Shown here piece by piece: positions 6,034 to 57,265 of a stretch of DNA of 64,000 nt. Source of the stretch: Flavobacterium sp. (GTDB lineage Bacteria > Bacteroidota > Bacteroidia > Flavobacteriales > Flavobacteriaceae); assembly GCA_041916875.1 (NCBI GenBank), contig JAYRYS010000002.1, positions 73,865 through 137,864 of the forward strand, written 5' to 3'. The number at the start of each line of letters is the position of its first letter. The first letter of the stretch is position 1. The position numbers and the translations under genes were made by a program. A model generated the notes under the pieces. That model searched no databases. It was not told the DNA's origin and saw only the letters and a list, made by a program, of their open reading frames with translations.

Positions 6034-6897
6034 TTATCCTAAGTAAGTCTTAAGAATTTTGCTGCGCGAGGTGTGTTTTAACCTCCTGATTGCTTTTTCT
6101 TTAATCTGGCGTACACGCTCACGGGTAAGGTCAAAAGTTTCGCCTATTTCCTCAAGCGTCATTGGGTGCTGGTCACCAAGCCCAAAATAAAGGCGTACTA
6201 CATCGGCTTCACGAGGCGTAAGGGTTTCAAGTGCCCTTTCAATCTCGGTACGAAGCGATTCATGTATAAGCTCACGGTCAGGGTTTGGAGATTCGCCTGA
6301 GCGTAATACATCATAAAGGTTAGAGTCTTCACCTTCAACAAGTGGTGCATCCATCGAAAGGTGGCGGCCGCTGTTCTTCATGCTTTCCTTAACGTCGTTC
6401 ACGGTCATGTCCAGCTCTTTTGCAATTTCTTCTGCAGAAGGGGCACGCTCGTTAGACTGCTCAAGAAGCGCATACATCTTGTTAATCTTGTTGATAGAGC
6501 CAATCTTGTTCAGCGGAAGGCGCACAATGCGCGACTGCTCTGCCAATGCTTGGAGTATCGACTGGCGAATCCACCATACGGCATAGGATATGAATTTGAA
6601 ACCACGGGTTTCGTCAAAACGCTGTGCCGCTTTGATAAGGCCCAGGTTGCCCTCATTGATAAGATCGGGAAGGGTAAGGCCTTGGTTTTGGTATTGTTTA
6701 GCCACCGATACTACGAAACGAAGGTTGGCTTTTGTAAGTTTTTCTAATGCCCTCTGGTCACCTGCTTTAATGCGCTGCGCCAGTTCTACCTCCTCATCCG
6801 CTGTAATCAAATCTACTTTTCCTATCTCCTGAAGGTACTTGTCCAATGAAGCAGTTTCCCTATTGGTTACCTGCTTGGTAATTTTTAATTGTCTCAT
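6034..6897 (-). CDS. rpoD: primary RNA polymerase sigma factor (Bacteroidota RpoD/SigA type lacking region 1.1)
   Basis: [14 protein letters not shown] start, [48 protein letters not shown]. Confidence 0.93.
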
Positions 6898-7098
6898 TTA
6901 AGAATATACTGAGTTTATTAAGTATTCTATCATTATACGCACAGAGAACGCAAAAAGTTACAAAACGCTATATACAAACTTAAATTTTAACATGCGTAAA
7001 TTGATTGAAACGTGTAATTATCATGTAATCAATGTGTTATTTTGATAGGCTGTTTTGTTTTTAACACCGGTAAATTATTTAATTTTCAGATGGATAAT

Positions 7099-7131
7099 AA
7101 AAAAAGCCCTGTGATGCGAAAACAGGGCTTT
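7099..7131 (-). terminator. terminator of ECF sigma operon
   Basis: Minus strand AAAGCCCTG...CAGGGCTTTTTT. Confidence 0.75.
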
Positions 7132-7158
7132 AGGTAACTCAACTAAAAAAACTGCACT

Positions 7159-8727
7159 CTACTTTTTCTTTTTCGATAGGTTAAAATTATACTGAAGGCC
7201 GGCCTGTATGGTAAATACAAACGGCTTTACATAATCAGGGGAGTCAAAATAATAACGCGCCATAGGCTCTACATTGGCCTGTATTGAAGGTGTAAATTTA
7301 TAAACCAGGCCTGCGCCCAAGCCTGCGCCAAACTTCATTTTATCGTCAACCGCTTCGCCAATATATGCCCTGCCCAGGTTGTTTTCGGCAAACATCTCAT
7401 TTTTGGTAACAAAGCGTGCTGTTACACCGCCTATTACCCCAAGCCTGAACTTGGTTCCGTAGAACGTATAGGTGGCTTCAACCGGTACATCAACAAACTG
7501 TAATTTGTGGCTGATATTGAAATTAGCATACGGCTGGCTGTTGACATCTAAGCCTTGCGTGAGCCTTTGCACTATGCTGGTGTTGCTCATGTTGGCGGCA
7601 TATTTTATGCCTGTATAGTCCGCAGGGGAACCGCTAAGGTACAGTCCATCTGTCTGTAACTCTAATTTTGTGCTGACGAATCCTGCCCTAATGCTCCACT
7701 TAGGGGTGATATTGTAGCCTAGGTACAAGCCGTAACCGAAAGCTTTTTCTACAGAGACATCACTGCCGGATACCGATGGGTCAATGTAATCGGCATCGCC
7801 GGCGCTGTACAATCCCGGTGCTACAAAACCGTACACAAACATTCTCTTGTTATCATCTGACGGCTTTTCCTGTTTCTTCTTTTTCTTCACTTCAACCAAA
7901 ACAGTTTCTTCTTCTTCGGGCTGTAAAGTATCAGCTTGCTTTTTGGTATTTTCCGTTTTTGCTTTTGCGGCAGCTGCCTTTTCTTTGCCTGCCGGTTTGT
8001 TTTCTGCAACAGCCTGTGTCTCTTCTGTGGTGATAGTATCAATAGCGGTTTCAGCATTAGCTGAAGCATCATTGGTAATGTCTACTTCGTTATTTTTAGT
8101 GGTATTGGCAGCTATGGAATTATTACCTCTTGTGTTATTCGACCTGCCGGATTTTTTTCCGGAAGAAGCAAGCCTGCCTTTTTTTACTGATGCACTATTG
8201 GTTTTGGATTTTCTCTTTTTGCTATACTTATTTGTTGTATTGCCTGAATTATCCCGGTTATTATCATTCGCGTTAGTAACCGTGTAACCTTTATTACCGG
8301 TTTTGCTGATGGCTTTTCTGTTTAAGGCATTTGTATTGCTTCCAGTTGTATATGTGCCCGCGTTAACTTCATCATTTTGTGAAGCAGTGCTTTCAGTCGC
8401 TACACTATTGCCGGTGCCAGTTGTGCGTGTTTGCCTTCCGGAAGCCCTTTGGCCTGATGCATTGGCATTTTCGGCATTCCCTGTTTCTATGTTGTTTACC
8501 TTAGGGGCATTGCCTGTGCCGTAATTTTCCCATAGCGGGTAGCCGAAAAGCCCCAGTACTAATAGTGCGGTTGGCACCGAAATGAACCACCAGAATATAA
8601 TGGCCCTACGCTTTTTCTTTTTAGGCAGGTCGTCCTTTATGGCTTGCCACACGTGGTCGCCGGGAGCCTTTTGCAGGCCATCCAGCTTTTCGCGGAACGC
8701 TTTCCCTATGTCTTTCCTATTTTCCAT
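7159..8727 (-). CDS. putative dual-membrane-spanning anti-sigma factor (cytoplasmic head, TM helix, disordered linker, C-terminal outer-membrane beta-barrel)
   Basis: Overlaps the ECF sigma stop; ~35-aa head, KKKKRR, hydrophobic helix, ~220-aa N/T/S/K-rich linker, alternating beta-strands ending AGLQYNF. Confidence 0.7.
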   Translation of the reverse strand: MENRKDIGKAFREKLDGLQKAPGDHVWQAIKDDLPKKKKRRAIIFWWFISVPTALLVLGLFGYPLWENYGTGNAPKVNNIETGNAENANASGQRASGRQTRTTGTGNSVATESTASQNDEVNAGTYTTGSNTNALNRKAISKTGNKGYTVTNANDNNRDNSGNTTNKYSKKRKSKTNSASVKKGRLASSGKKSGRSNNTRGNNSIAANTTKNNEVDITNDASANAETAIDTITTEETQAVAENKPAGKEKAAAAKAKTENTKKQADTLQPEEEETVLVEVKKKKKQEKPSDDNKRMFVYGFVAPGLYSAGDADYIDPSVSGSDVSVEKAFGYGLYLGYNITPKWSIRAGFVSTKLELQTDGLYLSGSPADYTGIKYAANMSNTSIVQRLTQGLDVNSQPYANFNISHKLQFVDVPVEATYTFYGTKFRLGVIGGVTARFVTKNEMFAENNLGRAYIGEAVDDKMKFGAGLGAGLVYKFTPSIQANVEPMARYYFDSPDYVKPFVFTIQAGLQYNFNLSKKKK

Positions 8728-15631: not shown

Positions 15632-15722
15632 AATTTGTTTCAGGTTTCAGGTTTAAAGTTTCATGTTGCTTACTCAAACGCATAGCCGCACAGAACCTGA
15701 AACTTTAAACCTGAAACAAATT
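15632..15722. repeat. heptamer (GTTTCAG)-built inverted-repeat element without a gene
   Basis: AATTT GTTTCAG GTTTCAG GTTTAAA GTTTCAT GTT ... AAC CTGAAAC TTTAAAC CTGAAAC AAATT. Confidence 0.85.
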
Positions 15723-29030: not shown

Positions 29031-30302
29031 CTACAGGTCGAATTGTTTTATTTTACGGTATAATGTCCTTTCTGATATGCCCAGCTCATCAGCCGCGGCT
29101 TTGCGCTTGCCTTTGTTTCGTTCCAGCGCTTTTTTAATCAGCTCAATCTCTTTTTCGTCCAGCCTCAGTGTTTCTTCCTCTTCCACAGTTTCGGCAAACA
29201 GGTAATTGTCGTCGTCGTCGTGGTGGTGCTCCACAACTGGTTCTTGCCTTACCGGTTTTTGCGGGGCATACACCTCGTCATGGTGCAGTTCCTCAAAGTG
29301 GCTATCGTTTTCGCCGTTGCCGTATATGCGCTGAATAAGATTTTTATTGGTTTCCTGCACTTTGCCGGTGTTGCCGCTTTGCATCAGGTCCAGCGTCAGT
29401 TTTTTTAGGTCGTTTAGGTCGGCCTTCATGTCAAACAACACCTTGTAGAGTATCTCCCTTTCGGTACTGAAATCGCTTTCCTGCTTTTTGCCCGGTATTA
29501 CGGCTGGCAGGTTGGTGCCGGCTTCCGGCAGGTAGCCACGCAGTGATGCACCGGTAATATTCCTGTTGGTTTCCAGTACTGATATCTGTTCGGCCACGTT
29601 GCGCAGTTGGCGGATGTTCCCGCTCCACCGGTATTGCGTCAGGAGGTTTACGGCATCGTCTTCCAGCTTTATGGGTGGCATTTTGTATTTGTGGGCGAAG
29701 TCTGACGAGAACTTACGGAACAGCAAATGCACATCATCCTTCCTGTCGCGCAGGGGCGGCAATGAGATTTCCACAGTGCTGAGGCGGTAGTACAAATCCT
29801 CACGGAACTTGCCTTTCTCAATCGCGTCAAACATATTTACGTTGGTGGCCGCTACAATGCGCACGTTGGTTTTTTGCACCTGGCTGGACCCAACTTTGAT
29901 GAACTCGCCGTTTTCCAGCACGCGCAGCAGGCGTACCTGTGTGGTAAGTGGCAGTTCGCCTACTTCATCAAGGAAAATGGTACCGCCGTCGGCTACTTCA
30001 AAATAACCTTCGCGGGTTGATGTTGCCCCTGTAAAGGCACCCTTTTCATGCCCGAAAAGTTCACTGTCAATAGTGCCTTCGGGTATGGCGCCGCAGTTTA
30101 CGGCGATGTATTTGCCATGCTTGCGGTGCGACAGGGCATGGATAATTTTAGGGATACTTTCCTTACCCACACCGCTTTCACCGGTAACCAGTACCGAAAT
30201 ATCGGTAGGTGCCACCTGGATGGCTTTCTCTATGGCGCGGTTCAGCTTAGGGTCATTCCCTATAATCTCGAACCGCTGCTTTATGGCTTGTACGCTTTCC
30301 AT
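29031..30302 (-). CDS. sigma54-dependent enhancer-binding protein (AAA+ plus Fis HTH, no N-terminal sensor)
   Basis: GESGVGKE, ELFGHEKGAFTGA, FLDEVGE, FREDLYYRL, AADELGISERTLYRK. Confidence 0.92.
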   Translation of the reverse strand: MESVQAIKQRFEIIGNDPKLNRAIEKAIQVAPTDISVLVTGESGVGKESIPKIIHALSHRKHGKYIAVNCGAIPEGTIDSELFGHEKGAFTGATSTREGYFEVADGGTIFLDEVGELPLTTQVRLLRVLENGEFIKVGSSQVQKTNVRIVAATNVNMFDAIEKGKFREDLYYRLSTVEISLPPLRDRKDDVHLLFRKFSSDFAHKYKMPPIKLEDDAVNLLTQYRWSGNIRQLRNVAEQISVLETNRNITGASLRGYLPEAGTNLPAVIPGKKQESDFSTEREILYKVLFDMKADLNDLKKLTLDLMQSGNTGKVQETNKNLIQRIYGNGENDSHFEELHHDEVYAPQKPVRQEPVVEHHHDDDDNYLFAETVEEEETLRLDEKEIELIKKALERNKGKRKAAADELGISERTLYRKIKQFDL

Positions 30303-30306
30303 ATTG

Positions 30307-30336
30307 TTTTGTTTCAGGTTTCAAGTTTCAGGTTAT
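30307..30336. repeat. left 30-bp inverted repeat of the four-helix-bundle cassette
   Basis: TTTT GTTTCAG GTTTCAA GTTTCAG GTTAT. Confidence 0.9.
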
Positions 30337-30722
30337 TGAAACTTGTTGCCCTTAAAGTCATTTTTATTTAGATAGACTATGAAGTTCTTTATTTTACCGC
30401 TTAACTTTTCATAGTCGTTTTTTAATTCAGCGAATTGTTCCTCGGTAATATATCCGCAATCCAGTAGGCGGTATAATTGCGAGCGTGTTTCACCCGCTGA
30501 ACCTTTCGCGATAGCAAGAAATTGCCTGAATTCAATATTTCCATCCCTTTCAAAACCTTCAGCAATATTATCCATGACCGAACCGGATGACGCCTTTACC
30601 TGTGATTTCAACCTAAAATCGGAATTAAGGTTTGTTTCAACAGATATAATATGTATGATATGTGCCAGTCTTCGTGCTTCTTTCCAAATTTCCAAATCCT
30701 CAAACCTGTTTATCGTCGCCAT
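30333..30722 (-). CDS. four helix bundle protein (23S rRNA IVS protein/Avd-like family)
   Basis: FEDLEIWKEA, DFRLKSQ, SVMDNIAEGFER, FLAIAKGSAGETRSQL. Confidence 0.93.
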   Translation of the reverse strand: MATINRFEDLEIWKEARRLAHIIHIISVETNLNSDFRLKSQVKASSGSVMDNIAEGFERDGNIEFRQFLAIAKGSAGETRSQLYRLLDCGYITEEQFAELKNDYEKLSGKIKNFIVYLNKNDFKGNKFQ

Positions 30723-30750
30723 AACCTGAAACCTGAAACTTGAAACAAAA
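30721..30750. repeat. right 30-bp inverted repeat of the four-helix-bundle cassette
   Basis: ATAAC CTGAAAC CTGAAAC TTGAAAC AAAA; its reverse complement matches the left arm at 28/30. Confidence 0.9.
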
Positions 30751-32196
30751 CTATTGCATTGATGAATATCCTACCGCTTCACCTATCAATGTTGATGTGG
30801 TGCAGTCTTCGGTAAGCACGTTCACAAAATCACCGGGCTTGTAGTTGCCTTTCGGGAAAACTACGGTGGTGTTTTGCGAATTGCGCCCGCTCCAATGCGC
30901 GGCAGATCGCTTTGATTCTTTCTCCACCAGCACTTCCACTACCTGGCCTACAAAACGCTGCGTACGTTCCAAAGCTATCTTTTGCTGCAGGTCTATAATT
31001 TCAGTAAGCCTGCGGTTTTTCACTTCGGCAGGTACATCGTCCTCCATTTTACGGGCAGCGAGTGTGCCCGGGCGTTCCGAATAGGCAAACATAAACCCGA
31101 AGTCGTACCGCACATGCTCCATCAGGCTCAGGGTATCTTTGTGGTCTTCCTCCGTTTCGGTAGGGAAACCGGTAATCATATCCTGCGATAGCGATATGTC
31201 AGGAATTATCCTGTATATATTATCTACCAGCGCCATGTATTCCTCACGGGTGTGCTGGCGGTTCATCTCTTTCAGTATGCGCGTGCTGCCGCTTTGTACC
31301 GGCAGGTGTATGTACTTACATATATTATGGTGTTTGGCCATAACCTCAATTACCTCCAGGTGCATGTCCTGCGGGTTGGAAGTACTGAAACGGAAACGCA
31401 TTTTAGGGAACGTCGTGGCAACCATGTCCAGCAGCTGTGCAAAATCTACCGCTGTGGCTTTCTGCATTTCGGTAGCTTTTACATAATCTTTCTTCAGTCC
31501 GCCGCCATACCACAGGTAGCTGTCCACGTTCTGGCCCAGCAGGGTAACTTCCTTAAAGCCTTTTGCCCACAGGTCGGCAATTTCTTCCATAATGCTTTGC
31601 GGCTCACGGCTGCGCTCCCGCCCACGGGTAAATGGCACCACGCAAAAGGTACACATGTTATCGCACCCACGGGTTATGGAAACAAAAGCTGTAACGCCGT
31701 TGCTGTTAAGGCGCACCGGCGCAATATCGCCATAGGTTTCTTCTTTTGACAAGATAACGTTTATGGCATCGCGGCCTTCTTCTACCTCTTTCAAAAGGTT
31801 CGGTATGTCCTTGTAAGCATCAGGGCCTACCACCATGTCCACAATTTTTTCTTCCTCCAAAAACTGGCTCTTAAGGCGTTCGGCCATGCAGCCCAGCACG
31901 CCTACCTTCATTCCCGGGTTTATTTTTTTTACGGCATTGTATTTTTCCAGCCTTTTGCGCACGGTCTGCTCCGCCTTATCGCGTATAGAGCAGGTATTTA
32001 CCAGCACAAGGTCGGCTTCCTCAATGTTTTGTGTAGTATTGTATCCCTGTTCCGAAAGTATAGAGGCCACAATCTCACTGTCAGAAAAATTCATCTGGCA
32101 GCCGTAGCTCTCTATGAACAGTTTTTTGGTATTTTCCGCTTTTTGCTCTAAAACAAGGCTTTGGCCCTGCTTGTTTTCTTCAATAATCTTTTCCAT
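30751..32196 (-). CDS. miaB: tRNA-2-methylthio-N6-dimethylallyladenosine synthase
   Basis: SYGCQMNFSDSE, NTCSIRDKAE, radical SAM CDNMCTFC, TRAM domain. Start MEKII; -7 box TATCTTTG at 32228-32235. Confidence 0.96.
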   Translation of the reverse strand: MEKIIEENKQGQSLVLEQKAENTKKLFIESYGCQMNFSDSEIVASILSEQGYNTTQNIEEADLVLVNTCSIRDKAEQTVRKRLEKYNAVKKINPGMKVGVLGCMAERLKSQFLEEEKIVDMVVGPDAYKDIPNLLKEVEEGRDAINVILSKEETYGDIAPVRLNSNGVTAFVSITRGCDNMCTFCVVPFTRGRERSREPQSIMEEIADLWAKGFKEVTLLGQNVDSYLWYGGGLKKDYVKATEMQKATAVDFAQLLDMVATTFPKMRFRFSTSNPQDMHLEVIEVMAKHHNICKYIHLPVQSGSTRILKEMNRQHTREEYMALVDNIYRIIPDISLSQDMITGFPTETEEDHKDTLSLMEHVRYDFGFMFAYSERPGTLAARKMEDDVPAEVKNRRLTEIIDLQQKIALERTQRFVGQVVEVLVEKESKRSAAHWSGRNSQNTTVVFPKGNYKPGDFVNVLTEDCTTSTLIGEAVGYSSMQ

Positions 32197-32399
32197 TTCC
32201 ACTCCTGTAGTGCTTTTTTCAGAACTGCAAAGATAGTATTTTATTTTAAGGTGTGACATTATGACAGCCTTACCGCTAATAAATTTTGGGCAAACGCAGA
32301 GTGAATTAAAGGTTAATGTTTTTCAAAAAAAACGACTTTTAAAATGCGCAAAAACCAATATTTAAAAAAAACCAATACTTTTGCCACTCAAAGAAAAGT

Positions 32400-48483: not shown

Positions 48484-48804
48484 CTATAAGAATTTTAGGA
48501 AATTCCAAAAAGGGCGGCTTTTAAGGAACGCTGAATCGTTTTCATGCCGGTAAGCTTCTCGCTCAAAACTGATGTTTCGGTAAGCTGCGTGCCGGTTGCG
48601 GTATTGTACCAGGCGGAGAAGATATTCCAAACCATACCAAATGTAAAAGGGCAGGATAAGCATTTCGGCCTGCTGGCGGAGGTGAATGCGCTCATGGTTG
48701 ATGATAGTGTCCTGCTTCAGCCTTTCATCCCGCAATATAATGAACGGGTACAGCGTGATGCCTGTAAAACCTTTCGGGACTAAATATTTAGAGGTGATTA
48801 TCAT
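48484..48804 (-). CDS. conserved hypothetical protein with HExxH motif
   Basis: GITLYPFI, INHERIHLRQQ, YRNISFEREAY. Start corrected to MIITSK. Confidence 0.8.
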   Translation of the reverse strand: MIITSKYLVPKGFTGITLYPFIILRDERLKQDTIINHERIHLRQQAEMLILPFYIWYGLEYLLRLVQYRNRHAAYRNISFEREAYRHENDSAFLKSRPFWNFLKFL

Positions 48805-48832
48805 GAAGAGTATGCGGATTGTTTGAATATCT

Positions 48833-48971
48833 CGCGAAGGCGCGAAGGCGCAAAGGTTTTTATTGTGATCAAATTTGGTACCTTGAGGCCTTATCGCTTC
48901 AAGGAAATATTTCCTCAATACATTAAAAGAAATCCGTGCCAATCTGCTAAAATCCGCGTCATCCGCGTTCC
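48833..48971. repeat. cluster of short tandem repeats and hairpins
   Basis: CGCGAAGG x2 plus CGCAAAGG (48833-48856); ATCCGYG-type units (48931-48971); hairpin at 48881-48904. Confidence 0.6.
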
Positions 48972-48988
48972 TTTTCTATTTATTATGA

Positions 48989-57153: not shown

Positions 57154-57206
57154 ACTGAGACTGAGACTGAGACTGAACACTGAACACTGAACACTGAACA
57201 CTGAAC
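57154..57206. repeat. tandem short repeats (ACTGAG)x3 + (ACTGAAC)x5
   Basis: Directly visible in the intergenic region upstream of the DUF4230 gene. Confidence 0.95.
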
Positions 57207-57265
57207 AACTCACCTCCAAGTTACCAATAAATTACAATAATCATTATTAAATAAACCCTAAACAA

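Follow-up and report, generated by a model that had tools for sequence, protein, structure and literature searches.

A four-helix-bundle gene cassette bounded by inverted heptamer arrays at an operon junction in Flavobacterium, and a protein residue that covaries with the repeat unit

In a 64,000-nt stretch of DNA from Flavobacterium sp. (assembly GCA_041916875.1, contig JAYRYS010000002.1, positions 73,865 to 137,864; hereafter the window), we analyzed an accessory gene cassette which encodes a four-helix-bundle protein of the PF05635/TIGR02436 family and is bounded by inverted 7-base arrays at the operon junction between miaB and a sigma-54 activator gene. Across homologous cassettes, residue 60 of the protein covaried with the fifth base of the heptamer, both in the arms beside the gene and in the arrays dispersed through the host genomes. 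Moreover, the miaB–activator junction was found to be a turnover site which cycles through unrelated repeat-armed cassettes, and a strain-level comparison gave a homing-like pattern. These three observations go beyond the initial annotation of the window. Judging from the sequences, the protein most likely recognizes its own arms and acts as the master gene of a family resembling the REPINs (repetitive extragenic palindrome doublets forming hairpins), the strand work being left to host recombination or repair; we give this reading, the best of those considered, an even chance of being right.

The cassette is 448 nt long and lies on the minus strand. The TAG stop codon of miaB occupies 30753-30751, and the 5′ arm (30721..30750, minus strand) begins directly after it as an array of GTTTCAR heptamers, T-rich on the mRNA strand, whose last bases are the A-T of the ATG of the four-helix-bundle gene (30333..30722, minus strand, 129 amino acids). 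The 3′ arm (30307..30336, minus strand), an A-rich array of CTGAAAC/TTGAAAC, overlaps the stop codon of this gene, starting at A-TAA, and ends 4 nt before the next ATG at 30302. By profile search, the upstream host gene is miaB (tRNA methylthiotransferase; 30751..32259, minus strand) and the downstream host gene (29031..30302, minus strand) encodes a protein with a sigma-54 interaction domain and a Fis-type helix-turn-helix. A repeat search matched 30303-30336 with 30721-30754 at 91% complementarity across 34 nt, and as an RNA duplex the arms paired at 29 of 30 positions (−38.8 kcal/mol). The fold of the 501-nt region had a z of −3.18, with none of 100 shuffled sequences equally stable, and its terminal stem appeared in the minimum free energy and centroid structures alike. 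These results bear out the initial annotation, which had placed the gene inside 30-nt inverted heptamer arms at this junction. It had also stated that no transposase is present; this holds for the cassette, which has room for the four-helix open reading frame (ORF) alone, the wider window not having been scanned for transposases. The proposed 4-bp target-site duplication found no support: AATA stands on both sides of the cassette, each copy overlaps the stop or start codon of the neighbor, and no consistent flanking duplication was seen by eye around six elements of the GTTTCAR family in the genome. The RNA-labelled runs X9 and X13 gave no coverage of the cassette.

The Asp60 codon (30543..30545, minus strand) lies in the loop after the motif NIAEGFER, between predicted helices 36-58 and 62-88. 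At all 58 loci with GTTTCAR arms position 60 was Asp, while at the 24 loci with GTTTAAR arms the most frequent residues were Asn (19), Ser (2) and Gly (2). A second method of calling the repeat unit, covering 96 loci, returned 65 Asp/C, 27 non-Asp/non-C, 3 Asp/A and 1 Asn/C combinations, so that 92 of the 96 agreed. Among the 129 columns of the protein, position 60 was the best for the repeat base. Chemically, Asp favors cytosine and Asn favors adenine.

The same link was observed in trans, when the flanks of the gene itself were subtracted. Dispersed C-type arrays outnumbered A-type arrays in 22 of 24 Asp60 genomes, and A-type arrays outnumbered or tied with C-type arrays in 14 of 17 non-Asp genomes. 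Residue 60 and the dispersed arrays thus agreed in 36 of 41 informative genomes (Fisher p 2e-6, uncorrected for kinship). This test drew on 47 readable genomes of 49 examined, out of 54 with a match, and 6 of them had fewer than five arrays. An exception to the rule was G032, whose gene has Asn60 and whose counts of both array types were very high (332 and 146); this genome perhaps holds a second paralogue. In addition, the median number of GTTTCAR doublets was 48.5 in genomes with the closest gene class, compared to 1 in the 197 genomes without a match.

The arms also accompany the gene at other sites. An inverted-match score of at least 14 between the flanks was reached by 76 of 102 homologues and by none of 102 shuffled controls, with 11 of 102 reaching it in direct orientation; the remaining 26 homologues fell below the threshold in inverted orientation. 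Each four-helix lineage kept its own unit across sites and genomes. Both the flanking arms of homologues and the tracking of protein lineage by repeat unit, raised as tests in the initial annotation, thus came out positive. The 134 loci, some of them duplicates between searches, included 63 at sufC-sufD, 15 at sufB-sufC and 10 at the pRiA4b-ORF3/NA37 junction. Close homologues occupied 14 junction types, and the gene was co-directional with both neighbors at 125 of 127 loci. The meeting of arm and start codon, taken earlier as a design feature, did not hold up, as the last repeat was within 5 nt of the ATG in just 6 of 85 homologues (median spacer 44 nt). The subfamily of the window gene was patchy, with a match in 54 of 251 genomes. 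The window copy grouped with two sufC-sufD copies (support 92/86), and the suf operon was not found in the window's assembly, which is 61% complete. At locus L162 (G007) a second ORF stood beside the four-helix gene inside the arms, and at L117 an insert of about 550 nt split the gene.

Within the genome of the window, GTTTCAR-type arrays occurred at about 15 loci, as hairpins or single arms. The gene-less copy reported earlier at 15632..15722 (no strand assigned) was confirmed, with 29-nt arms of 86% complementarity and a 33-nt loop; a gene with a GAF domain ends with its stop codon on one side of it, and the upstream region of rpsO lies on the other. A T run follows it on the minus strand, upstream of rpsO, and the hairpin could, from its sequence, double as an intrinsic terminator. 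Dispersed intergenic inverted doublets which match the flanks of a resident gene, a mark of REPIN systems, are therefore present here. The arms had a preferred polarity: 17 of 23 strictly defined arms were T-rich just after a stop codon or A-rich just before a start codon, and there were 5 opposite placements, some arms being counted both ways. The genome has six PF05635 matches, of which five were examined. All five had periodic flanks by eye, each with a different 7- or 8-base unit. The whole assembly held 28 period-7 arrays of many different units, while the other periods between 5 and 12 had 0-11 arrays each, and most of the period-7 units can be written as purine-T-T followed by four variable bases.

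The protein matched TIGR02436 (E 2e-28; 98.7 bits, cut-off 24) and PF05635 (E 4e-32; 111 bits, cut-off 33.8). PF05635 had 1-11 matches per genome in 41 of 41 Flavobacterium genomes searched, and the closest homologues of the window protein came from Flavobacterium records. The predicted model of the 129 residues (predicted local distance difference test score, pLDDT, 91) is a four-helix bundle like 2GSC (template modeling score, TM, 0.8; Z 18.2) and 2RLD (Z 15.7). It shares its predicted fold with Avd of diversity-generating retroelements (PDB 4DWL, 8UB7; TM 0.73, Z 13.5-13.9). The link of the family to the proteins of rRNA intervening sequences (IVSs), and by fold to Avd, is thereby supported. 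Unlike Avd in its retroelement, with which identity is about 11-12%, the window protein has no reverse transcriptase and no template/variable repeat pair in the cassette or its immediate neighbors, the rest of the genome not having been searched for reverse transcriptases. The 2GSC and 2RLD entries have five chains each, and by analogy the protein may form an Avd-like pentameric ring. Pfam and NCBIfam returned four-helix-bundle families only and no GIY-YIG domain, and no HUH (Y1) tyrosine transposase is encoded, the helical-bundle gene being the sole ORF of the cassette. Between species, dN/dS (the ratio of non-synonymous to synonymous rates) was 0.044-0.072 in 7 unsaturated of 10 pairs, the 3 pairs with the window protein being saturated. 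With a dN/dS of about 0.05, the four-helix protein is thus conserved by purifying selection between species.

An ORF enclosed in a long stem of terminal inverted repeats is also the layout of rRNA IVSs. The cassette might then be an mRNA intervening sequence, in which RNase III cuts the 30-bp stem, frees the ORF RNA and splits or destabilizes the operon transcript, so that the RNA structure matters and not the protein. The near-complete pairing and the calculated stability of the stem speak for this explanation, and the 28-bp heptamer stem of the 23S IVS of Coxiella burnetii is reported to be cut by RNase III in vitro (PMC4990558). The cassette sits between miaB and the sigma-54 activator gene and not in an rRNA gene. 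Several results stand against an mRNA intervening sequence. The protein is strongly conserved; many members of the GTTTCAR family are single arms with no partner; 26 of the 102 homologues are under the inverted-match threshold; and the arms differ by whole units among strains, the near-identical strains of three other studies carrying the cassette with a 3′ arm one heptamer shorter. Furthermore, the last three codons of the gene (Lys-Phe-Gln; 30336..30344, minus strand) spell a heptamer, and the short local hairpin they could form would compete for the 3′ arm. Cleavage without religation would also separate co-transcribed genes such as sufB-sufC-sufD. We therefore regard this explanation as unlikely. 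Excision without religation would split the operon transcript and thus cannot explain the spread of DNA; such processing can coexist with a master gene but would not itself move DNA. Joints which skip the ORF were rejected as evidence of excision, since their sides were shorter than 30 nt and their foreign spacers were those of other gene-less hairpins.

To follow the junction in relatives, the 29 best-scoring of 36 congeners were surveyed. None of the 29 had the four-helix gene between miaB and the activator gene; 12 had GxxExxY genes in inverted 10-mer arrays, 3 had a YcxB-like gene, and 14 had no ORF. The ORF-less gaps measured 11-134 nt and were mostly hairpins of several units, some being bare at 11-12 nt. 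Likewise, none of 34 metagenomic miaB–activator junctions of the nearest lineage held the gene, and these comprised 6 GxxExxY matches, 7 YcxB matches and 4 without miaB upstream. Four hosts picked for their close homologues elsewhere had other contents at this junction, and in seven other genomes of several genera a four-helix homologue was present after miaB. The GxxExxY genes (TIGR04256/PF13366; PD-(D/E)XK) had distinct 10-mer arms of their own. These results indicated that the junction turns over among unrelated repeat-armed cassettes. The description of an accessory, repeat-bounded cassette at operon junctions was upheld, the gene being variable at the miaB–activator site and recurring at others.

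The GxxExxY genes at this gap were those of loci L004, L005, L013, L014, L016, L018-L021, L024, L025 and L030, and of L223, L225-L227, L234 and L237; that of L014 was frameshifted. Other palindromes occupied the gap at L170 (G277), L019 and L026, including a G/C-rich palindrome and REP-like palindromes. At L172 (G276) and L235, the sequence between the arms was short and similar to the YcxB-like gene at its 3′ end; this gene is whole in L171. The apparent remnant suggests that gene-less hairpins can arise through internal deletion. YcxB as captured cargo was not adopted as a claim, since a similar gene also occurs at the miaB–activator junction without arms. The genome of the window has a GxxExxY gene as well (G000:C1, about 6800-7300), which is flanked by inverted arms of its own. 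By eye, a gene-less arm at 48945-48972 of the window, upstream of the ORF 48484-48942, is similar to these arms. This ORF has no Pfam match and contains three 8-base units (CGCGAAGG-like) at 48832-48853. At 57154-57208, between the response regulator and DUF4230 genes, ACTGAG 6-mers run into ACTGAAC 7-mers; by its sequence this array probably belongs, as a single arm, to a different family of repeats.

Then, the cassette was compared with one conspecific contig (30031-31029). The four-helix gene differed by 0 synonymous and 5 non-synonymous changes (79 synonymous sites), compared to 21 synonymous and 2 non-synonymous changes in the flanks (126 synonymous sites). Outside the cassette, differences resumed at 30279 and 30769, within about 30 nt of the arms. 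Because of the 0 versus 21 synonymous changes, the alleles of the cassette seem to be of much more recent origin than the flanking sequence. The five amino-acid changes were mostly at conserved positions, and one of the two alleles appears to be drifting. The pattern is homing-like and fits lateral overwriting followed by decay. A one-base deletion in the four-helix gene was also seen at window position 30545 in run X6 (contig depth 3.7); either the allele is broken or the contig was misassembled there.

The amino-acid changes also bear on whether the host has adopted the protein as a post-transcriptional regulator. Such a protein would bind the arrays at stops and starts to tune translational coupling or termination, its own arms would serve autoregulation, and the host would select the spread of the arrays. 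This would account for arms which adjoin stops and starts with fixed polarity, for dispersed arrays which match the resident protein, and for the presence of PF05635 in every genome of the genus searched. MacGregor also proposed a repeat-binding regulator for the TAACTGA arrays (PMC4679880). However, the subfamily is patchy, the contents of the junction turn over fast among unrelated cassettes, two of the five paralogues examined are broken, and the conspecific allele has amino-acid changes only, mostly at conserved positions. We consider a role as host regulator rather improbable.

A number of results weigh against the protein as a master gene which moves with its repeats. In a wide fold search with the model, no nuclease or recombinase fold was among the top matches, although this does not exclude such an activity. 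Site labels clustered on the gene tree (20 changes versus 42.5 when shuffled; a quick tree with 6 duplicate rows dropped), and jumps to a new junction thus look rare relative to inheritance or exchange at a site. Judged by sequence, inheritance at a site combined with loss could account for much of the spread. A single origin of the 8 miaB-site copies was not rejected by the approximately unbiased (AU) test (p 0.152), and since this allows one miaB-site clade, independent insertion of the window copy is not claimed. The initial annotation had proposed comparing the junction across strains: absence was found in the congeners and metagenomic junctions described above, but no conspecific empty allele was found, the strains in three other studies carrying the cassette. 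The strain comparison comprises one contig, with 4 of 32 differences unlisted and with patchy regional divergence (0-6%). As to residue 60, positions 112 and 126 covaried with the repeat base too (88%), and the independent pairs numbered 1 on well-supported branches and 5-8 on all branches (sign test p 1); with just 1 well-supported pair, shared descent could explain the residue–base link. A general residue-60 code across distant subfamilies was rejected, as no simple rule emerged in 21 clusters, most of them singletons. Finally, repeat replication which depends on the gene has a genome-level association behind it, yet 18 of the 197 genomes without a match (E<=1e-35; other paralogues not excluded) held at least 50 GTTTCAR doublets, and kin among the genomes are not independent.

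These points bring in the possibility that the four-helix gene is a passenger. The arrays would spread by slippage, gene conversion or another enzyme (e.g., the GxxExxY nuclease), the junctions would be swapped by homologous recombination via the conserved flanking genes, and the four-helix gene would merely be co-inherited. The varied contents of the miaB–activator junction, where GxxExxY cassettes, palindromes and, both armed and unarmed, a YcxB-like gene are found, are in agreement with this, as are the array-rich genomes without the window gene class, the strong link of site and clade and the small number of independent contrasts for the residue–base link. On the other hand, the 10-mer arms of the GxxExxY genes are of a different kind, the repeat unit is retained within each four-helix lineage whatever the site or genome, and the gene is conserved. 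In addition, the low-divergence tract of the strain pair ends near the arms and does not extend into the flanks. Taken together, we think it unlikely that the gene is only co-inherited.

Returning to the protein as master gene, the following mechanism may be outlined. The gene would sustain the gene-less hairpins found throughout the genome, in the way that RAYT (REP-associated tyrosine transposase) sustains REPINs, and the protein would read the repeat via residue 60, with Asp for C and Asn for A. The form read could be single-stranded DNA, RNA or a duplex. Avd binds RNA. Because the protein has no recognizable nuclease fold, copying and insertion probably depend on host recombination or repair acting at the arms to which it is bound. 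New junctions seem to be reached rarely, and an occupied junction seems to be overwritten laterally more often. The host probably tolerates insertion because the T-rich arm follows a stop and the A-rich arm precedes a start. Insertion would be close to neutral owing to this polarity and to the stem: once paired, the arms would draw the flanking stop and start close to each other, and a 3′ arm left unpaired would provide an A-rich region for initiation. Where the gene is lost or decays, gene-less hairpins would remain. We infer binding of the arms, ring formation, mobility and neutrality of the cassette from these comparisons.

Among known systems, the closest in layout is the 23S S23p IVS of C. 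burnetii, as far as its published description was available (PMC4990558). It encodes a PF05635 protein and measures 428-444 nt compared to 448 nt here; its terminal stem has 28 bp compared to 30 bp, its ORF is sense to the transcript, and its stem consists of tandem heptamers whose number varies between strains. However, the window cassette lies between protein-coding genes and not in rRNA, and it has dispersed gene-less copies. Moreover, the Coxiella ORF is reported to be degenerating (PMC4990558), whereas the window ORF is under purifying selection between species.

REPIN/RAYT systems, in the part of the account accessible to us (PMC3116915), likewise combine one repeat-flanked gene with dispersed gene-less intergenic inverted doublets which match the type of the resident gene. 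In contrast to them, the window gene has no HUH tyrosine transposase, and its arms are tandem 7-mer arrays with stop/start polarity and not short palindromes. Ssn with the NTS/SRM repeats, judging by the text available (PMC11893778), is also a small gene whose cognate repeat flanks it and recurs in many more copies in the genome, with variants of the repeat specific to each gene. But Ssn is a GIY-YIG nuclease of single-stranded DNA, while the window protein is all-helical and matched no nuclease, and the repeats are built differently.

The TAACTGA arrays of Beggiatoaceae, Cyanobacteria and Bacteroidetes (PMC4679880) are similar in being short intergenic heptamers oriented upstream of start codons, and that paper suggests that a repeat-binding protein might be a mobile element. 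The unit is different, and the accessible part of the paper describes no inverted arms around a gene; its main text contains none of the terms 'four helix', 'intervening', TIGR02436 or PF05635. One further paper (PMC10392669) was, in its accessible part, irrelevant to the cassette. No description of the gene-in-stem design outside rRNA was found in the full-text literature searched, subscription papers and supplements excluded. Avd-like genes with tandem repeats, named 'XID elements', are said to be the subject of a thesis or preprint; this work was not found and could lower the novelty. The initial annotation had called the system undescribed. This stands in so far as no account outside rRNA was found, but the gene-in-stem layout with heptamers is already published for the Coxiella 23S IVS (PMC4990558).

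A broader picture can be drawn only tentatively, and we hold it to be somewhat doubtful. PF05635 proteins would be sequence-specific readers of short tandem repeats with a simple residue-to-base code, which drive a transposase-free selfish element that homes into operon junctions and seeds intergenic heptamer arrays. The ORF-bearing rRNA IVSs would be a special case of this element, and Avd a recruited member of the family. The PF05635 proteins form a large family without a known function, and the intergenic heptamer arrays are, by the available account, an open puzzle (PMC4679880). The pattern of Asp60/Asn60 against C/A joins both puzzles and predicts a testable specificity switch in repeat binding. 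If it is true that the protein reads and spreads repeats without a nuclease, this would be a new route of mobility and a new small, Avd-related scaffold for reading nucleic acids.

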